In this document: piece after piece, positions 27 to 15,330 of the stretch
How the letters are laid out: each line of letters begins with the position of its first letter
Numbering within the stretch: position 1 is the first letter of the stretch
Virus record (IMG/VR): IMGVR_UViG_2778261543_000003
Location: 1-15,756 of that record
DNA: 15,756 nucleotides
Reading direction: 5' to 3' (one strand)
DNA from: a virus
Lineage: Duplodnaviria; Heunggongvirae; Uroviricota; Caudoviricetes
Position numbers and translations under genes: made by a program
Notes under the pieces: generated by a model
Told to the model about the DNA's origin: nothing
Seen by the model: the letters and a program-made list of their open reading frames with translations, nothing else
Database searches by the model: none

Positions 27-515
27 TCACTCTCCTTTGATGCGAATGCCAGCGGCGCGGATTGCAGCGATGACTTCAGAAACTTTGTATGCCATTACCG
101 TTTGGTAATCATCGTGAAAATCTGTTCGATGAAGCATACTGCTACGTTCCGGGATCAGTATTTCCCGCGCTTCCAGTTCTGCAATGCGCTTCTCTGCGGC
201 TTCCAGCTCAACACGCAGCCTCCCAACCGTAAGCGCAATATCCTCGTTCTCCTGGTCGCGGGATTTGATGTATTGCTGGTTCCTTTCCCGTTCATCCAGT
301 AGTGCCAATGCAATCTTTGGATTAAAGGCAGCAATAAATTCAGCGTTGTTTTTCAGAACGTGTTGCGCAATGGCCTGACTACTTAGTCGGACCTCATAAC
401 CACGTGCGCCACGGTGTGGTTTATATGAGTCCCAGTCTCCCCACGTTGCTTTTTCTGCCGCCTCACGCAGTACCTGATAGTCAATCTTGCTCACTGGTTG
501 CCTCCTTTGCGCCAC
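27..515 (-). CDS. Phage protein with coiled-coil character, possibly Ead/Ea22-like
   Basis: 162-aa ORF in the Ea22-equivalent position distal to the recombination genes; heptad-like [16 protein letters not shown] segment. Family name is from memory only. Confidence 0.55.
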
Positions 516-658
516 ATCGCATTCAGATATTTGTTTTGATTCACTGACGGAAAAGAATTTCTCTTAAGCAATTCCTCTCTCGATGGCATTGGCTTTACGC
601 GTTGGCGAATAATCATTTCTGCCGGAAGAATGCTGGGATTGTATGCAAGTCCTCTCAT
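491..658 (-). CDS. Small hypothetical protein (55 aa, start MRGLAY)
   Basis: ATG at 658 lies 6 nt after GAGGAA; the upstream gene's TGA stop overlaps this RBS. The longer track ORF (to 811) overlaps the upstream gene and is less likely. Confidence 0.35.
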
Positions 659-668
659 GGTAAATTCC

Positions 669-965
669 TCAGTCATTACTGATAGCGCCATAGCGTGAGC
701 GGTAATTACGCAGGCGCGGGTCGATATATTCAGGGAAGTGGGTATATGTGGCTTTGCGGAATGGTCGGATTGATGTCTGGTAAATTCGATCGCGTTCTTC
801 TTTCTCTGCAAGCCATATGCAGTGGCGAAACTCCTTTTCCTCTTTCGTTTCCTGCGGTAGCGACATTATCCGGTCGTAGTTTTTCCTGAATTTATCCAGC
901 ACCTCCGATACGGAATTGCCGGAACAGCGGCGCGCGTCATCCGCACCATACAAAGGCGCTGGCAT
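669..965 (-). CDS. Hypothetical phage protein (98 aa)
   Basis: AGGAG 6 nt upstream of the ATG at 965; tightly packed between the exonuclease and downstream genes on the same strand. Confidence 0.6.
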
Positions 966-1538: not shown

Positions 1539-2054
1539 TTAAATTGCGTGAATAGCGTGACGAGGGAAGGGGAGAGTTACTGGTGCAAAGGGGATATCGT
1601 CGTCAAAATCCATAGGTGGTTCGCTGTGATTTCCCTGCTGCTGAGGTTGCTGTCTTTGTTGCTGACCATTATTTCGCTGAGGTGAAGACTGTTCATTGCC
1701 TCCTTGCTTGCCACCAAGCATTTGCATGGTTCCACCAACGCCCACGATGACTTCGGTAGTGAACCGATCCTGTCCGCTTTGATCCTGCCATTTTCTTGTC
1801 CGCAATTTGCCTTCAAGATAAACCTCAGAGCCTTTTCGCAGATATTCGCTGGCAATTTCTGCCAGTTTCCCGCTCATTACCACGCGGTGCCACTCCGTCT
1901 GCTCCTTTTGCTCTCCAGTTTTCTTATCACGCCATTGTTCTGACGTAGCAACGGTAAGGTTTGCAAATGCCGTTCCTGATGGTGAATATCTGATTTCTGG
2001 ATCATGCCCAAGGCGACCAATAATGATCACCTTATTTACGCCTCTGCTTGCCAT
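1539..2054 (-). CDS. ssb: Single-stranded DNA-binding protein with extended C-terminus
   Basis: OB-fold N-terminus closely resembling E. coli SSB ([33 protein letters not shown]), Gly/Gln-rich linker and acidic tip [11 protein letters not shown], followed by 15 extra residues ([15 protein letters not shown]). Confidence 0.9.
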
Positions 2055-2770: not shown

Positions 2771-2941
2771 TCAGAATGGACACGGCCCAAGGAAATAACG
2801 CTGATTTAATACTTCGACTCGGGACAAATTAAGGCATACCCGCATTCCTTCGCGGTCGCCATTATGGCGATACCAGAGAGCTTTCTGCGTGTACATGCGT
2901 CTCTGTAACTTGCTCTCCTTCACTGTGGTTGCAAGTGACAT
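2771..2941 (-). CDS. Small hypothetical protein (56 aa, MSLATTVKESK...)
   Basis: Not in the ORF track (under 60 aa). AAGGAGATATTC-ATG RBS; its stop overlaps the RBS of the Rad52-like gene. Confidence 0.35.
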   Translation of the reverse strand: MSLATTVKESKLQRRMYTQKALWYRHNGDREGMRVCLNLSRVEVLNQRYFLGPCPF

Positions 2942-3020
2942 GAATATCTCCTTCGTTACCGATTAATTCTTTCATCTGACGAATGAATTCTTCGTCTGAC
3001 CAGTTATCTGTAAAACTCAT
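2862..3020 (-). CDS. Small hypothetical protein (52 aa, MSFTDNWSDEEFIRQMKELIGNEGD...)
   Basis: ATGA stop/start overlap with the upstream small ORF; overlaps the 2771-2941 ORF in another frame, so at most one of the two may be complete. Confidence 0.25.
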   Translation of the reverse strand: MSFTDNWSDEEFIRQMKELIGNEGDIHVTCNHSEGEQVTETHVHAESSLVSP

Positions 3021-3169
3021 TTCCTGCGATACCATGGAAGGTTGATAGCTGATTTCATCGCTTTATTTGCTTCAAGCCACATTTTTGAATCACCAATAAA
3101 TCTGGCTATTACTGCTTTGTTCTGTGCAGCACGAAGCATCTGGTGATTGATGGCTATTTCATTGCGCAT
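3017..3169 (-). CDS. Small hypothetical protein (50 aa, MRNEIAINHQMLRAAQNKAVIARFIGDSKMW...)
   Basis: GGAGG 6 nt upstream of the ATG at 3169; occupies the kil-equivalent position just upstream of the recombination genes (positional inference only). Confidence 0.4.
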   Translation of the reverse strand: MRNEIAINHQMLRAAQNKAVIARFIGDSKMWLEANKAMKSAINLPWYRRK

Positions 3170-3288
3170 AACGCCTCCAGTTGTTTCTTTGCTGCTCTGA
3201 TTAATTGTTTAACTCGGCGTGATAATTCAGATTCGTGCGGGTAGAAAGCGGACATGACGCCGCTACCCGCGAGCTGAAAGTGCATCAT
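3154..3288 (-). CDS. Small hypothetical protein (44 aa, MMHFQLAGSGVMSAFYPHESELSRR...)
   Basis: TAAGGAG 7 nt upstream of ATGATG at 3288; the track's longer form (start 3363) has no RBS and would abut the upstream stop. Confidence 0.45.
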   Translation of the reverse strand: MMHFQLAGSGVMSAFYPHESELSRRVKQLIRAAKKQLEALCAMK

Positions 3289-3363
3289 GGGTAACTCCTT
3301 ATATTTGATTGCATAACGAAAACGCCTCGAGTGAAGCGTTATTGGTATGCGGTAAAGCCGCAC

Positions 3364-3732
3364 TCAGGCGGCCTTGATCGTCATATCATCTGAATCAAAT
3401 ATTCCTGATGTATCGATATCGGTAATTTTTATTCCTTCACTACCATCCATTGGAGGCCATCCTTCCTGACCATTTCCATCATTCCAGTCGAACTCACACA
3501 CAACACCATATGCATTTAAGTCGCTTGAAATTGCTATAAGCAGAGCATGTTGCGCCAGCATGATTAATACAGCATTTAATACAGAGCCGTGTTTATTTAG
3601 TCGGTATTCAGAGTCTGACCAGAAATTATTAATCTGGTGAAGTTTTTCCTCTGTCATTACGTCATGGTCGATTTCAATTTCTATTGATGCTTTCCAGTCG
3701 TAATCAATGATGTATTTTTTGATGTTTGACAT
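3364..3732 (-). CDS. Strongly acidic hypothetical protein (122 aa)
   Basis: Clean ORF with GAGGAA upstream; by my count about 22 Asp/Glu against about 8 Lys/Arg; lies between the pL-proximal cassette and the recombination module. Confidence 0.7.
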   Translation of the reverse strand: MSNIKKYIIDYDWKASIEIEIDHDVMTEEKLHQINNFWSDSEYRLNKHGSVLNAVLIMLAQHALLIAISSDLNAYGVVCEFDWNDGNGQEGWPPMDGSEGIKITDIDTSGIFDSDDMTIKAA

Positions 3733-3750
3733 CTATTCATTTCCTCATAG

Positions 3751-3778
3751 ATAAAAAATCGCCCTCACATTGGAGGGC
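3751..3778 (-). terminator. Intrinsic terminator (minus strand) between the AT-rich cassette and the acidic-protein gene
   Basis: Plus-strand ataaaaaatc-GCCCTC-acattg-GAGGGC; on the minus strand a 6-bp GC stem followed by a run of 6 U. Confidence 0.6.
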
Positions 3779-3884
3779 AAAGAAGATTTCCAATAATCAG
3801 AACAAGTCGGCTCCTGTTTAGTTACGAGCGACATTGCTCCGTGTATTCACTCGTTGGAATGAATGCACAGTGCTTATTCGCAGT

Positions 3885-4211
3885 CTACATAATCATTCCG
3901 GTTATTATTACCATTTCAATATCACTATCTTTCATAATGATTGGAGTTGAGTTATCAACTTTACTTTTACTCCATTTTCCTGCATCAGTTTTTACCGCTC
4001 CACAATAAGAAAGCCAATCATTATCACAATGTTCTGGATCGCTGATTCTGACAAGAACACGTGATAGTGCTTTTTCGATACTTTCATCACAATTAGCATT
4101 TGTGTAATTGCCGTGAGACAATTTTAAATCGTTAACTTCATCTTCATTGGCATCAAAAATATAGATTTCAGTCGACTCTGGAACATTTTCATAAACCATT
4201 AAAACTTTCAT
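3885..4211 (-). CDS. Acidic hypothetical protein (108 aa, start MKVLMVYENVPE); second gene of AT-rich cassette
   Basis: Start chosen at the ATG at 4211 (GGGGTAAAA-ATG) because the track's longer start at 4331 overlaps the upstream gene; region is visibly AT-rich. Confidence 0.5.
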   Translation of the reverse strand: MKVLMVYENVPESTEIYIFDANEDEVNDLKLSHGNYTNANCDESIEKALSRVLVRISDPEHCDNDWLSYCGAVKTDAGKWSKSKVDNSTPIIMKDSDIEMVIITGMIM

Positions 4212-4257: not shown

Positions 4258-4728
4258 CTAGTAGAATACCCAATTTTCTGCTTCTTGGTTGTGTCCAAAG
4301 TTATATTCAATATCTGGTGTTGATGTATCAATATTCTTCATCCCATCAACAAGAGTTGATACAACAGCCAAATCTTGTTTGATTCTCATTAAATGGTATT
4401 TCTTCCGGCGCAATAAACTTTCAATGGCAAGTTTCTTCGTTGGGAATGCAAAAGATCTTTCTGCATTTTTTGCTACTTTCTTAATTGCATATCTATTTCT
4501 CCTTTGTTTCCATTCCTGTAACCACTGATTTGGTGCTGGTTTAAAACCAACAACCCAATGCGCAGGAACCAACCATGCATAATGCTCTGTCTGATGAAAA
4601 GCTATATATTGAAGTGCGAATATTTTTATCCCATCTTCTTCAACTGTCGCCTGGAATCTCCAGAAAACAGGCATTCCATCATGTTCAGTTTCTGATTCAG
4701 GAAAAGGTACGCTCCATGATTTTGTCAT
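4258..4728 (-). CDS. Hypothetical protein (156 aa) translationally coupled to N
   Basis: N stop TGA, then GGTGAGAT, then ATG at 4728; AT-rich relative to N; no family recognised. Confidence 0.7.
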   Translation of the reverse strand: MTKSWSVPFPESETEHDGMPVFWRFQATVEEDGIKIFALQYIAFHQTEHYAWLVPAHWVVGFKPAPNQWLQEWKQRRNRYAIKKVAKNAERSFAFPTKKLAIESLLRRKKYHLMRIKQDLAVVSTLVDGMKNIDTSTPDIEYNFGHNQEAENWVFY

Positions 4729-4736
4729 ATCTCACC

Positions 4737-5036
4737 TCAAATAAGTGGTTTGCTGCCTAATTTCATTTTCTGGCGACCAACACAAGTCACACCCATTTCA
4801 CTGCGTGGCTTGCGGTAGTAAATACGATTCTGTTTACTCTCGACTTCTTCTGCCTTCTTGCAGCGAAGGCTTCCGAGTGATGCTGCTTTGTCTGCTCTGA
4901 CGCAACCAGAGAGCTTTAGCGCATTTTTTCGCGCCAGTCGCTGCTCTTGCATTGCCTGTTCACGTTGAGCCTGTCTGCGTGCTCTGCGGCGATTTCTGGC
5001 GTTATCGTCAGCCAGATATGTAATGACTACTGTCAT
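4737..5036 (-). CDS. N: Antitermination protein N
   Basis: Arg-rich N-terminal motif (DDNARNRRRARRQAQREQ) and C-terminus YYRKPRSEMGVTCVGRQKMKLGSKPLI closely matching the lambda N C-terminus as I recall it; GGAGG 7 nt upstream of the ATG at 5036; nutL lies upstream. Confidence 0.75.
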   Translation of the reverse strand: MTVVITYLADDNARNRRRARRQAQREQAMQEQRLARKNALKLSGCVRADKAASLGSLRCKKAEEVESKQNRIYYRKPRSEMGVTCVGRQKMKLGSKPLI

Positions 5037-5076
5037 GTTGACCTCCGGGAAGGTACACATCCTTGTGTGTCGATGA

Positions 5077-5196
5077 TTATTTGTTTTTGCGTTCCCACAT
5101 CCAGTCATCTACTTCAGACCAGATAGTGAAACCGAAGCAGATGGCGAATGTGGTAACTAAACCACCGAGAATTGGGTTGGTCATGATGTCTAACAT
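5077..5196 (-). CDS. Small predicted membrane peptide (39 aa, MLDIMTNPILGGLVTTFAICFGFTIWSEVDDWMWERKNK) in the N leader
   Basis: Not in the ORF track. GAGGAA 6 nt upstream of ATG; one hydrophobic helix plus a charged Trp-rich tail; lies between the leader inverted repeat and N. Confidence 0.35.
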   Translation of the reverse strand: MLDIMTNPILGGLVTTFAICFGFTIWSEVDDWMWERKNK

Positions 5197-5660: not shown

Positions 5661-5695
5661 GAAAAGAAAACCCGGCGCTGAGGCCGGGTGTTTTT
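5661..5695 (-). terminator. Intrinsic terminator ending the cI operon (potentially bidirectional)
   Basis: CCCGGC-gctgag-GCCGGG stem-loop flanked by a T-run on the plus strand and an A-run (U-run on the minus strand); starts right after the stop of the 5694-5990 gene. Confidence 0.7.
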
Positions 5696-5990
5696 AGTCT
5701 TTTCTTTTGCTTAGCATTTCGTCGATTTCTAAGTCAATACGATATTGATCTATTGCTTTTCTCTCGTTTGGGGTTGGTATTTTATATTGTTCAATTAGAT
5801 CTGTTGTGTATTTTATTTCATCTAATGTGATTTTTATATCAGAGAGAATCTCTTTTATATCAATTAGATGCTCTTCTTCTTTTGCGCGATTAGAGCTATG
5901 TTCAATCATTTGAGATAGCTTTTTACTAATGCTTAGCAAAACAAAAAGAATGATGATCAAAACAACAACAAAAACTATCAGAAATTCCAT
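5694..5990 (-). CDS. AT-rich single-pass membrane protein with coiled-coil-like C-terminal region, cotranscribed with cI
   Basis: GGAGGGATA-ATG RBS 40 nt downstream of the cI stop; hydrophobic N-terminus EFLIVFVVVLIIILFVLLSI, then a charged, periodic Ile/Leu segment; followed by a terminator. Confidence 0.7.
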   Translation of the reverse strand: MEFLIVFVVVLIIILFVLLSISKKLSQMIEHSSNRAKEEEHLIDIKEILSDIKITLDEIKYTTDLIEQYKIPTPNERKAIDQYRIDLEIDEMLSKRKD

Positions 5991-6030: not shown

Positions 6031-6738
6031 TTACCAACTATGAGACGACCAGAATACTCTGCCAATAATCCTTACGGTTTCATGAAATTCATCTCTATCC
6101 ATTACTTCATCCGGGTACTCTTCGCGATTTATTGATCTGATTATCACCGATGTAGGGGTGGCGATTAATGTTTTTACTCGTAACAAATCAGACTGGCAAA
6201 TAGCGTAGGTTTTACCATCTCTGATTGTGGTATCTTGCGTGTTAACACCAACAACATCGCCATCGTGAAGCGTTGGTTCCATGCTTTGCCCTACAACCCT
6301 AACTAGCTTGGCTGATCTTTCAGATACTCCCATCTTTTTCAGATAGTGCTTTCTGAAAACCAAAGAGAACTCCGATGATTCCTCTAGCTCGCAGCTACCG
6401 CTTCCAGCTGAAAGCGAAACGTTAAGAAGAGGCAACGCAACAAACTCGTCATCGTTTCTTTTAATGTCTTCCCATACCACAGCTTTTAAAGATGACTCAC
6501 GGACATTGGATGGTTCTTCATGTGCACCATCCCTCATTTCACCAATACCAGAACTAAGCCATTCAGGGCGCACTTTTAAAGCATTGGCTAATTCAACCAT
6601 CTTGCGAGATCCGTTTGTTTTACCGGACGACATCTTCTGTATGGCTGGCTGAGATATTCCAACCATGTCAGCAAGCTGTGATTGTGATACCCCTGCCGAG
6701 CTCATGGCTGCATTTAGTCTTTCTGCGAATGTTTTCAT
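6031..6738 (-). CDS. cI: cI-type repressor (HTH plus S24 LexA-like peptidase domain)
   Basis: HTH SQSQLADMVGISQPAIQKM; S24 signature GQSMEPTLHDGDVVGV and a downstream Lys (LRVKTL). Start taken at MKTF (6738) because the longer track start at 6768 would overlap an operator. Confidence 0.85.
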   Translation of the reverse strand: MKTFAERLNAAMSSAGVSQSQLADMVGISQPAIQKMSSGKTNGSRKMVELANALKVRPEWLSSGIGEMRDGAHEEPSNVRESSLKAVVWEDIKRNDDEFVALPLLNVSLSAGSGSCELEESSEFSLVFRKHYLKKMGVSERSAKLVRVVGQSMEPTLHDGDVVGVNTQDTTIRDGKTYAICQSDLLRVKTLIATPTSVIIRSINREEYPDEVMDRDEFHETVRIIGRVFWSSHSW

Positions 6739-6750
6739 ACCCACAAATCT

Positions 6751-6816
6751 ATAACTACGGTTATCCAAAGTAAAATAACAAAGGTTATTGCTATTTTTTA
6801 TAACTTGAGTTATCTT
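6751..6816 (+). promoter_or_regulatory. OR operator triplet with pR (and divergent pRM) region
   Basis: ATAACTACGGTTAT (6751-6764), ATAACAAAGGTTAT (6775-6788) and ATAACTTGAGTTAT (6800-6813) at 24-25 bp spacing; candidate pR -35 TTGCTA (6788-6793) and -10 TATCTT (6811-6816). Confidence 0.6.
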
Positions 6817-12575: not shown

Positions 12576-12650
12576 GGGTCAGTCGTATAAAGGTCATTAC
12601 GGAAGGCTGTTAACCTTCTTATCGTGGTTCGAGTCAACGCTGTCCCGCCA
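12576..12650 (+). tRNA. tRNA-Asn-like (anticodon GUU), possibly degenerate
   Basis: Cloverleaf foldable by hand: anticodon arm GAAGG-CTGTTAA-CCTTC, T-loop TTCGAGT, 3' CCA; but one acceptor mismatch, one T-stem mismatch and an odd D-arm. Confidence 0.4.
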
Positions 12651-12655
12651 AATAT

Positions 12656-12731
12656 GCTGGTTTAGCTCCAATGGTAGAGCAGTCGCCTTGTAAGCGAATG
12701 GGTAGCGGTTCAAGTCCGTTAACCAGCACCA
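12656..12731 (+). tRNA. tRNA-Thr (anticodon UGU)
   Basis: 76 nt; perfect 7-bp acceptor stem GCTGGTT/AACCAGC, D-stem GCTC/GAGC with GG in loop, anticodon loop CTTGTAA, T-loop TTCAAGT, 3' ACCA. Confidence 0.75.
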
Positions 12732-15111: not shown

Positions 15112-15330
15112 CGGCAGTACCGCGAAACAACCCAAGCCAGTAAGTGGGGAAATAACACTGGCAGCCACTGAAAGATGAACCTCCAGCCTTATGGCAAAAA
15201 AGATTCTTTGTGGTGGCGGACTGATGGAAAGACATCGGATAGAATAAAACAGTGGCTAGGGTAGCTCCCGAAAAGCGGAATCGTCACCGCCAGCCACTGA
15301 ATCTATGACGAACAACTAGACGAGGTTGAT

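Follow-up and report, generated by a model that had tools for sequence, protein, structure and literature searches.

A small acidic protein of a mosaic lambdoid phage corresponds to lambda Ea10 (DUF2528), an early protein that accompanies Gam and Abc2 rather than replacing them

Bacteriophage lambda carries the early gene ea10 in its leftward operon, whose map order is N, (sieB), orf28/ral, ea10, cIII, kil, gam, bet and exo. Its product, Ea10, is abundant early in infection and was formerly mistaken for Kil (PMC3961180). A genome-wide CRISPRi map scored the gene as non-essential and entered it as "DUF2528 family protein" (PMC10695390), and it routinely accepts insertions and deletions (PMC2327257, PMC3961180). 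In the two-hybrid study of lambda, supplementary table S4 places Ea10 outside the network and the main text counts one interaction (PMC3224144). Recently, an Hfq-bound sRNA, LPR1, was described between ral and ea10 in lambda in a 2024 preprint that calls the role of ea10 "not fully understood" (bioRxiv 10.1101/2024.10.31.621285). The literature search retrieved no function assigned to ea10 and hardly any mention of DUF2528. Citations of a cell-cycle block attributed to Sergueev et al. reportedly come for the most part from work on the exo-xis region, and no link between the block and ea10 was found. RefSeq and NCBI now name the protein 'DUF2528 family protein' or 'hypothetical protein', and in the literature searched no biochemical support was found for the "ssb" label that it inherited.

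Ea10 shares with the DNA-mimic inhibitors (lambda Gam, T7 Ocr, ArdA, Ugi) the condition of a small and strongly acidic early phage protein that is dispensable in laboratory hosts. Of these, lambda Gam, a helical dimer, occupies the RecBCD channel as a mimic of DNA. A sequence-only reading of the DNA analyzed here, a stretch of 15,756 nucleotides from a tailed-phage record (IMGVR_UViG_2778261543_000003; hereafter the window), proposed that an acidic protein encoded at 3364-3732 could be an inhibitor of this kind, analogous but unrelated to Gam and located where lambda encodes Gam and P22 encodes Abc. The window belongs to a mosaic lambdoid phage with ea10 in its leftward (pL) operon, and the features of this region are as follows.

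4737-5108, leftward pL operon: N-like antiterminator
4258-4728, leftward pL operon: ORF of PHROG 1636
about 3885-4211, minus strand: ORF of PHROG 4658 in the lambda ral slot (108 aa, pI 4.42, net charge -10, no Pfam match)
3312-3873, no strand assigned: lambda-matching block (98% identity), a 562-bp mosaic cassette with the LPR1/tL2a region, ea10 and the downstream hairpin
3753-3780, minus strand: intrinsic terminator just 5' of ea10, with stem 3780-3759 and T-run 3758-3753 (terminator scan)
3742-3746, minus strand: Shine-Dalgarno-like GAGGA, 9 nt 5' of the ea10 ATG (read from the sequence)
3364-3732, minus strand: ea10 coding sequence, 122 codons from ATG to TGA, DUF2528
3321-3340, minus strand: terminator-like hairpin between the ea10 stop and cIII, within the lambda-identical block (terminator scan)
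3154-3363, leftward pL operon: cIII (Pfam cIII, E = 5.4e-30)
3017-3169, leftward pL operon: kil (profile E = 1.7e-20)
2771-3035, minus strand: two small overlapping ORFs in the kil-annealase interval, the lambda gam slot
2055-2762, leftward pL operon: Rad52-like annealase
1539-2054, minus strand: SSB (TIGR00621, E = 3.8e-54)
982-1530, leftward pL operon: Rv2179c-like 3'-5' exonuclease
669-965, minus strand: full-length P22 Abc2 anti-RecBCD protein (PF11043, E = 1.2e-60), directly 3' of the 3'-5' exonuclease

Read in the sense of transcription, the order is N, two ORFs, tL2a, ea10, hairpin, cIII, kil, two small ORFs, annealase, SSB, exonuclease and Abc2. The gene thus occupies the slot of ea10 in lambda, between the N-proximal accessory genes and cIII-kil and behind tL2a. 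The place of Gam, between kil and the annealase, lies two genes further downstream, so the position assigned to the gene in the sequence-only reading was mistaken. Lambda and the window agree in the length of Ea10, in its pL location upstream of cIII/kil, in the terminator/LPR1 region upstream and in the hairpin downstream. They differ at both ends of this arrangement, since lambda has ral and sieB where the window has unknown ORFs, and gam-bet-exo where the window has a Rad52/SSB/exonuclease/Abc2 module of the HK97/Sf6 type.

Several other features of the window were recorded. The two ORFs at 2771-3035, one encoding an acidic protein of 57 aa (pI 4.36, PHROG 2123) and the other a basic protein of 56 aa (pI 10.0, PHROG 1723), are homologous to HK97 gp42 and gp42.1 and also to Sf6 genes; the basis of the label 'recombinase' that they carry in PHROGs is not evident. 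The SSB extends about 15 residues beyond the canonical DFDDDIPF tip, which is consequently not C-terminal, unlike that of E. coli SSB. Two ORFs downstream of Abc2, at 27-515 and 491-811 (both on the minus strand), encode a protein similar to Ead/Ea22 (PF13935, E = 2.1e-30) and a member of DUF2737. In the slot of lambda rexAB, flanked by the cI-like repressor (6031-6768) and the pL/N region, the minus strand encodes at 5694-5990 a protein of 98 aa with a hydrophobic N-terminal segment and only weak profile matches, which may be a candidate lysogenic-conversion or exclusion gene. On the plus strand, tRNA-Asn(GTT) (12576-12650) and tRNA-Thr(TGT) (12656-12731) are arranged in tandem, and the Rfam int-alpA sRNA family matches 15249-15311 with 42 bits.

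The identity of the gene is almost beyond doubt on sequence grounds, as it corresponds to the lambda early gene ea10 (alternative names 'ssb' and lambdap45), a member of DUF2528. Its product matches PF10800 (DUF2528) along the whole 104-position profile (159.5 bits, with the cutoff at 22; E = 3.9e-47) and PHROG 646 over positions 1-122 of 122 (E = 3e-70). At the nucleotide level the window gene is 98.9% identical to lambda J02459 33536-33904, annotated as "ea10 (ssb;122)", and 99.2% identical to its counterpart in phage 434; a megablast search of GenBank phages returned 202 records matching it, every one at 95% identity or more. The protein shares 121 of its 122 residues with lambda Ea10, the sole difference being a conservative one at position 102 (K in the window, R in lambda), where the family consensus is K, as in the window. 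The Pfam, PHROG and profile-search matches show that the ORF is a genuine gene and not a chance reading frame. Among 5,426 complete E. coli genomes, 1,479 (27%) carry ea10 at 95% identity or more, with a maximum of four copies per genome. The gene was therefore already known and nothing is new about the gene itself: it was already part of the lambda sequence of 1982, is present in about one quarter of complete E. coli genomes and is an ordinary find. The homology detected is to a family, Ea10/DUF2528, that is itself uncharacterized, and not to a characterized family of non-inhibitors, the outcome that had been named as contradicting the proposal of an inhibitor.

A blastn comparison of the window with lambda 30536-36904 returned the block 3312-3873 as the sole lambda DNA match around ea10. 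Judging from the terminator scan, the 98% identity to lambda and the description of LPR1 (bioRxiv 10.1101/2024.10.31.621285), the terminator at 3753-3780 is the counterpart of lambda tL2a, where the sRNA LPR1 has its 3' end, and the hairpin at 3321-3340 is what we take to be lambda tL2b. The tL2a/LPR1 region (3753-3873, minus strand) is kept at 98% identity although ral is missing, ea10 and this RNA element moving jointly as one mosaic block, and no Rfam family matches 3753-3873. Because the gene lies behind an intrinsic terminator, transcription of ea10 should need antitermination by N. The GAGGA upstream of the start codon is consistent with the abundance reported for Ea10 (PMC3961180).

The composition ascribed to the protein in the sequence-only reading was exact on recount: among its 122 residues there are 22 acidic (14 Asp and 8 Glu) and 8 basic ones (7 Lys and 1 Arg), and acidic clusters such as DIDTSGIFDSDD are present. 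The calculation of pI and charge that had been suggested as a check gave a pI of 4.28 and a net charge of -14.1 at pH 7 for a product of 13.75 kDa, that is, the small size and low pI that the DNA-mimic class requires. Per residue, Ea10 is by far the most acidic of the 11 window proteins checked. In lambda Ea10 the charge is split into -10 for the core (residues 1-104) and -4 for the tail, and since the core alone reaches -10 the acidity is more than a property of the tail. Acidity alone is nevertheless not distinctive for Ea10, as two further small ORFs of its operon are likewise acidic.

The possibility that Ea10 is a DNA mimic similar to Gam or Abc, which blocks RecBCD or restriction nucleases and fulfills the role of Gam in a phage that lacks it, was examined in this context and seems very unlikely. 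In its favor, the protein is small and acidic, with about -0.12 charges per residue, a value within the general range of small DNA mimics; it is encoded by an early, non-essential gene in an accessory region; and lambda gam is absent from the window, the best tblastn match of lambda Gam having E = 0.88 and lying elsewhere than in ea10. The same search, together with the Gam profile (PF06064), which gave nothing against Ea10 at E <= 1, bore out the earlier statement that the protein has no similarity to Gam. PF11043 (Anti-RecBCD_p2, P22 Abc2) did not match Ea10 either, and Abc2 is a separate ORF of the window that, in view of its sequence and of an arrangement like that of P22, is the RecBCD modulator proper of this phage; its presence at full length argues against Ea10 in the same role. 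In addition, lambda gam mutants show RecBCD-sensitive phenotypes even though ea10 is present.

The neighborhood of ea10 in other phages bears on the same question. A sample of 80 IMG/VR loci with essentially the same ea10 was inspected, of which 62 were informative, that is, had at least 2 kb of sequence downstream. In 50 of these, ea10 is followed by gam and bet, in 5 by a Rad52-type module and in 7 by neither. Among the 80 loci, 15 synonymous codon changes were counted against 1 non-synonymous change, in a sample biased by the choice of loci by protein identity. In Mu-like prophages, the genes for distant homologs of Ea10 precede Mu Gam by two or three genes. The co-occurrence with gam in lambda and in most of the informative loci, and the proximity of Mu Gam, indicate that Ea10 is a companion of end-protection proteins and does not substitute for them: both Gam and Abc2 are found together with it. 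A role as an anti-restriction gene of plasmid leading regions was also considered and rejected, since the 19 plasmid hits were lambda-length "plasmids" or misassigned chromosomal or prophage records. Genuine plasmids are without ea10, including the leading regions of conjugative plasmids, where anti-restriction mimics are common, which further weakens the case for a mimic of the Gam type.

A profile search over 1.8 billion representative proteins, grouped in clusters at 50% identity, detected 589 clusters of the Ea10 family at E <= 1e-3 and 237 at E <= 1e-10. The median net charge of 204 full-length members is -13 and their median pI 4.4, with a pI below 5 in 97.5% of them; such values indicate that strong acidity is a family trait and not the product of chance. 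The same acidity was observed in the 120 more distant representatives, and the charge persists to identities as low as about 30%. Conservation is highest at G100, G97, E90, G91, F37, D22, D96, F81, R44, L56, Y7, S98, N35, W92, P93 and W38, and the conserved motifs are E-I-D-H (20-23) and E-G-W-P-x-M-D-G-S-x-G-I-K-I (90-103). The long helix varies in its C-terminal half. Conservation is concentrated in particular polar and glycine residues of loops and does not follow a diffuse pattern of charge, and the near-invariant residues span phages of Gamma- and Betaproteobacteria. In this respect Ea10 differs from the DNA-mimic inhibitors, which present an array of charges, whereas its conservation is centered on one loop motif.

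The distribution of DUF2528 across hosts and phages is far wider than the Pfam description implies and reaches beyond the temperate phages of enterobacteria. Apart from lambdoid pL operons, members occur in Mu-like early regions of Salmonella, Serratia, Oceanobacter, Burkholderia and Stenotrophomonas, where in prophages the gene lies between MuB and Gam/GemA/Mor, with RdgC and an HU-like protein also nearby, and one member was found in a P4-like element that also encodes a Toprim primase and an integrase. Homologs were also observed in a 104-kb phage contig (L090/L091, 5001-5375), beside a CCA-adding enzyme and RlaP (tRNA repair), and in jumbo-phage contigs of 369-373 kb (L093/L094, 5001-5345), near PolB and, in the 369-kb contig, also a 5'-3' exonuclease. 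No informative domain fusions were detected, the longer family members carrying only unannotated N-terminal extensions. Two apparent fusions were discarded as natural proteins, as both resemble deletion derivatives, engineering chimeras or remnants of recombineering constructs: one (P0026) joins residues 1-87 of Ea10 to the C-terminus of lambda Gam, and the other (P0116) is a Ral-Ea10-Kil mosaic annotated in Parabacteroides.

An alignment of 65 full-length homologs was used to obtain an AlphaFold2 model of Ea10, with a mean pLDDT of 95.7 and a pTM of 0.87. The model contains strands at 4-11, 15-22 and 101-107, four helices (28-37, 41-48, 51-70 and 74-79), a long, ordered loop spanning 80-100 and a short acidic C-terminal segment (pLDDT 87-91). 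The predicted fold is a compact acidic alpha/beta structure, a beta2-alpha4-beta sandwich, and not an OB fold. This model, though confident, appears to be without a close structural relative: Foldseek gave no match in the PDB at E <= 0.001, and in BFVD one viral protein of 121 aa with 23% identity that is apparently a family member. PDB sequence searches with the single sequence and with the profile found no relative of Ea10 (the best hit, DotZ, had E = 0.75, which is noise), and the PADLOC and NCBIfam profile libraries did not match it. No OB fold, Gam, Ocr, ArdA or other solved DNA mimic was present among the results of the structure searches, and the helical dimer characteristic of Gam is not seen in the model. 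The predicted fold speaks against a DNA mimic, as the inhibitors of this class share neither sequence nor fold with Ea10.

The model is also relevant to the inherited annotation, according to which Ea10 would be an ssDNA-binding protein that aids recombination or replication. The label stands on the original lambda record and on many derived records, and recombination genes nearby, the abundance of Ea10 and its conserved aromatic residues are in line with it; even so, this role is improbable. No SSB/OB-fold profile (PF00436 / TIGR00621) matches the protein, a bona fide SSB is already encoded in the window, and the folded core has a net charge of -10, with just 8 basic residues in the protein. 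In classical SSBs, the charge is concentrated in a disordered tail. Apart from an acidic stretch at the C-terminus, Ea10 has nothing but the inherited annotation in common with the E. coli SSB family, and the E. coli SSB tail ends in D-D-D-I-P-F, which that of Ea10 does not. The motif IFDSDDM led us to consider Ea10 as a mimic of the SSB C-terminal tail, a candidate that was rejected because its tail does not have the hydrophobic C-terminal residue of the SSB tip and is predicted to be ordered. The name "single-stranded DNA-binding protein" is thus supported neither by the sequence nor by the predicted structure and is unfit for inference.

Among the nearest folds listed for the model were the EF-Ts dimerization domain and SPFH, with a weak match to HflC (SPFH / Band 7). 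This match suggests that Ea10, resembling the SPFH domain of HflC/HflK, could act as a modulator of the lysis-lysogeny decision on the FtsH/HflKC axis together with its neighbor cIII, which is the least probable of the functions considered here.

A different role, as a small-ligand binder or small enzyme, is the main rival to the binding of a host factor that we favor below. According to it, the target of Ea10 would be a nucleotide-like molecule, for instance an immune signaling nucleotide, sequestered or modified in a pocket formed by the conserved loop and the aromatic residues, possibly at an oligomer interface. The pattern of conservation fits such a pocket, and the conserved E, D, H, N, R and S residues, the glycine-rich loops and the aromatics agree equally well with a ligand pocket or active site as with a docking surface. 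On the other hand, no known sponge or enzyme structure or profile gave a significant match, the conserved negative charge is left unexplained and would be unfavorable for anionic nucleotides, and no signaling or defense context was seen alongside ea10, so that we regard this role as rather unlikely, albeit less so than ssDNA binding.

With low-to-moderate confidence, our overall best guess is that Ea10 works by binding a conserved ligand or host factor stoichiometrically. In its more specific form, which is put forward tentatively, Ea10 would bind and inhibit a conserved host factor, probably a protein that handles nucleic acids or participates in defense. It would act stoichiometrically, as an accessory protein that is made early and in abundance and is non-essential. 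The invariant loop E90-G-W-P-x-M-D96-G-S98-x-G100 and the nearby E20-I-D22-H23 may dock onto a highly conserved host partner, to which the negative surface of Ea10 would give electrostatic complementarity, and the protein may operate as an acidic decoy or inhibitor within the host-takeover set formed by Ral, Gam, Kil and CIII. A conserved partner is pointed to by the near-invariance of polar and glycine residues across the phages of both proteobacterial classes, and a target in the host fits with the fact that no lambda-lambda two-hybrid partner is recorded for Ea10 in table S4 (PMC3224144). The occurrence of the family in mobile elements unrelated to one another, within their early or accessory regions, supports the binding of a host factor, and the lack of likeness between the model and any solved DNA mimic or inhibitor argues against it. 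We also infer that Ea10 neither binds DNA nor replaces Gam. Of the initial proposal, what remains viable is the general notion of a small acidic inhibitor of a host factor, as the acidity is family-wide, the gene is early and non-essential and its neighbors in several phage types serve host takeover; what is not borne out is the analog of Gam or Abc located in the place of Gam, given that the gene is lambda ea10, that it coexists with gam and that the window has Abc2.

The idea of a Gam analog can be dropped, and the corresponding experiments saved. More speculatively, Ea10/DUF2528 may found a widespread and structurally unclassified family of acidic early phage proteins that neutralize a conserved host protein of nucleic-acid handling or defense, or soak up a conserved ligand, through the invariant EGWPxMDGSxG loop, and that could have been missed for 50 years as laboratory K-12 strains would be without the target or the phenotype. 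Ea10 is among the few abundant early proteins of lambda without an assigned function, and its conserved motif, its acidity and the spread of the family to Mu-like, jumbo and P4-like elements make it tractable for pull-down experiments or screens of defense libraries.
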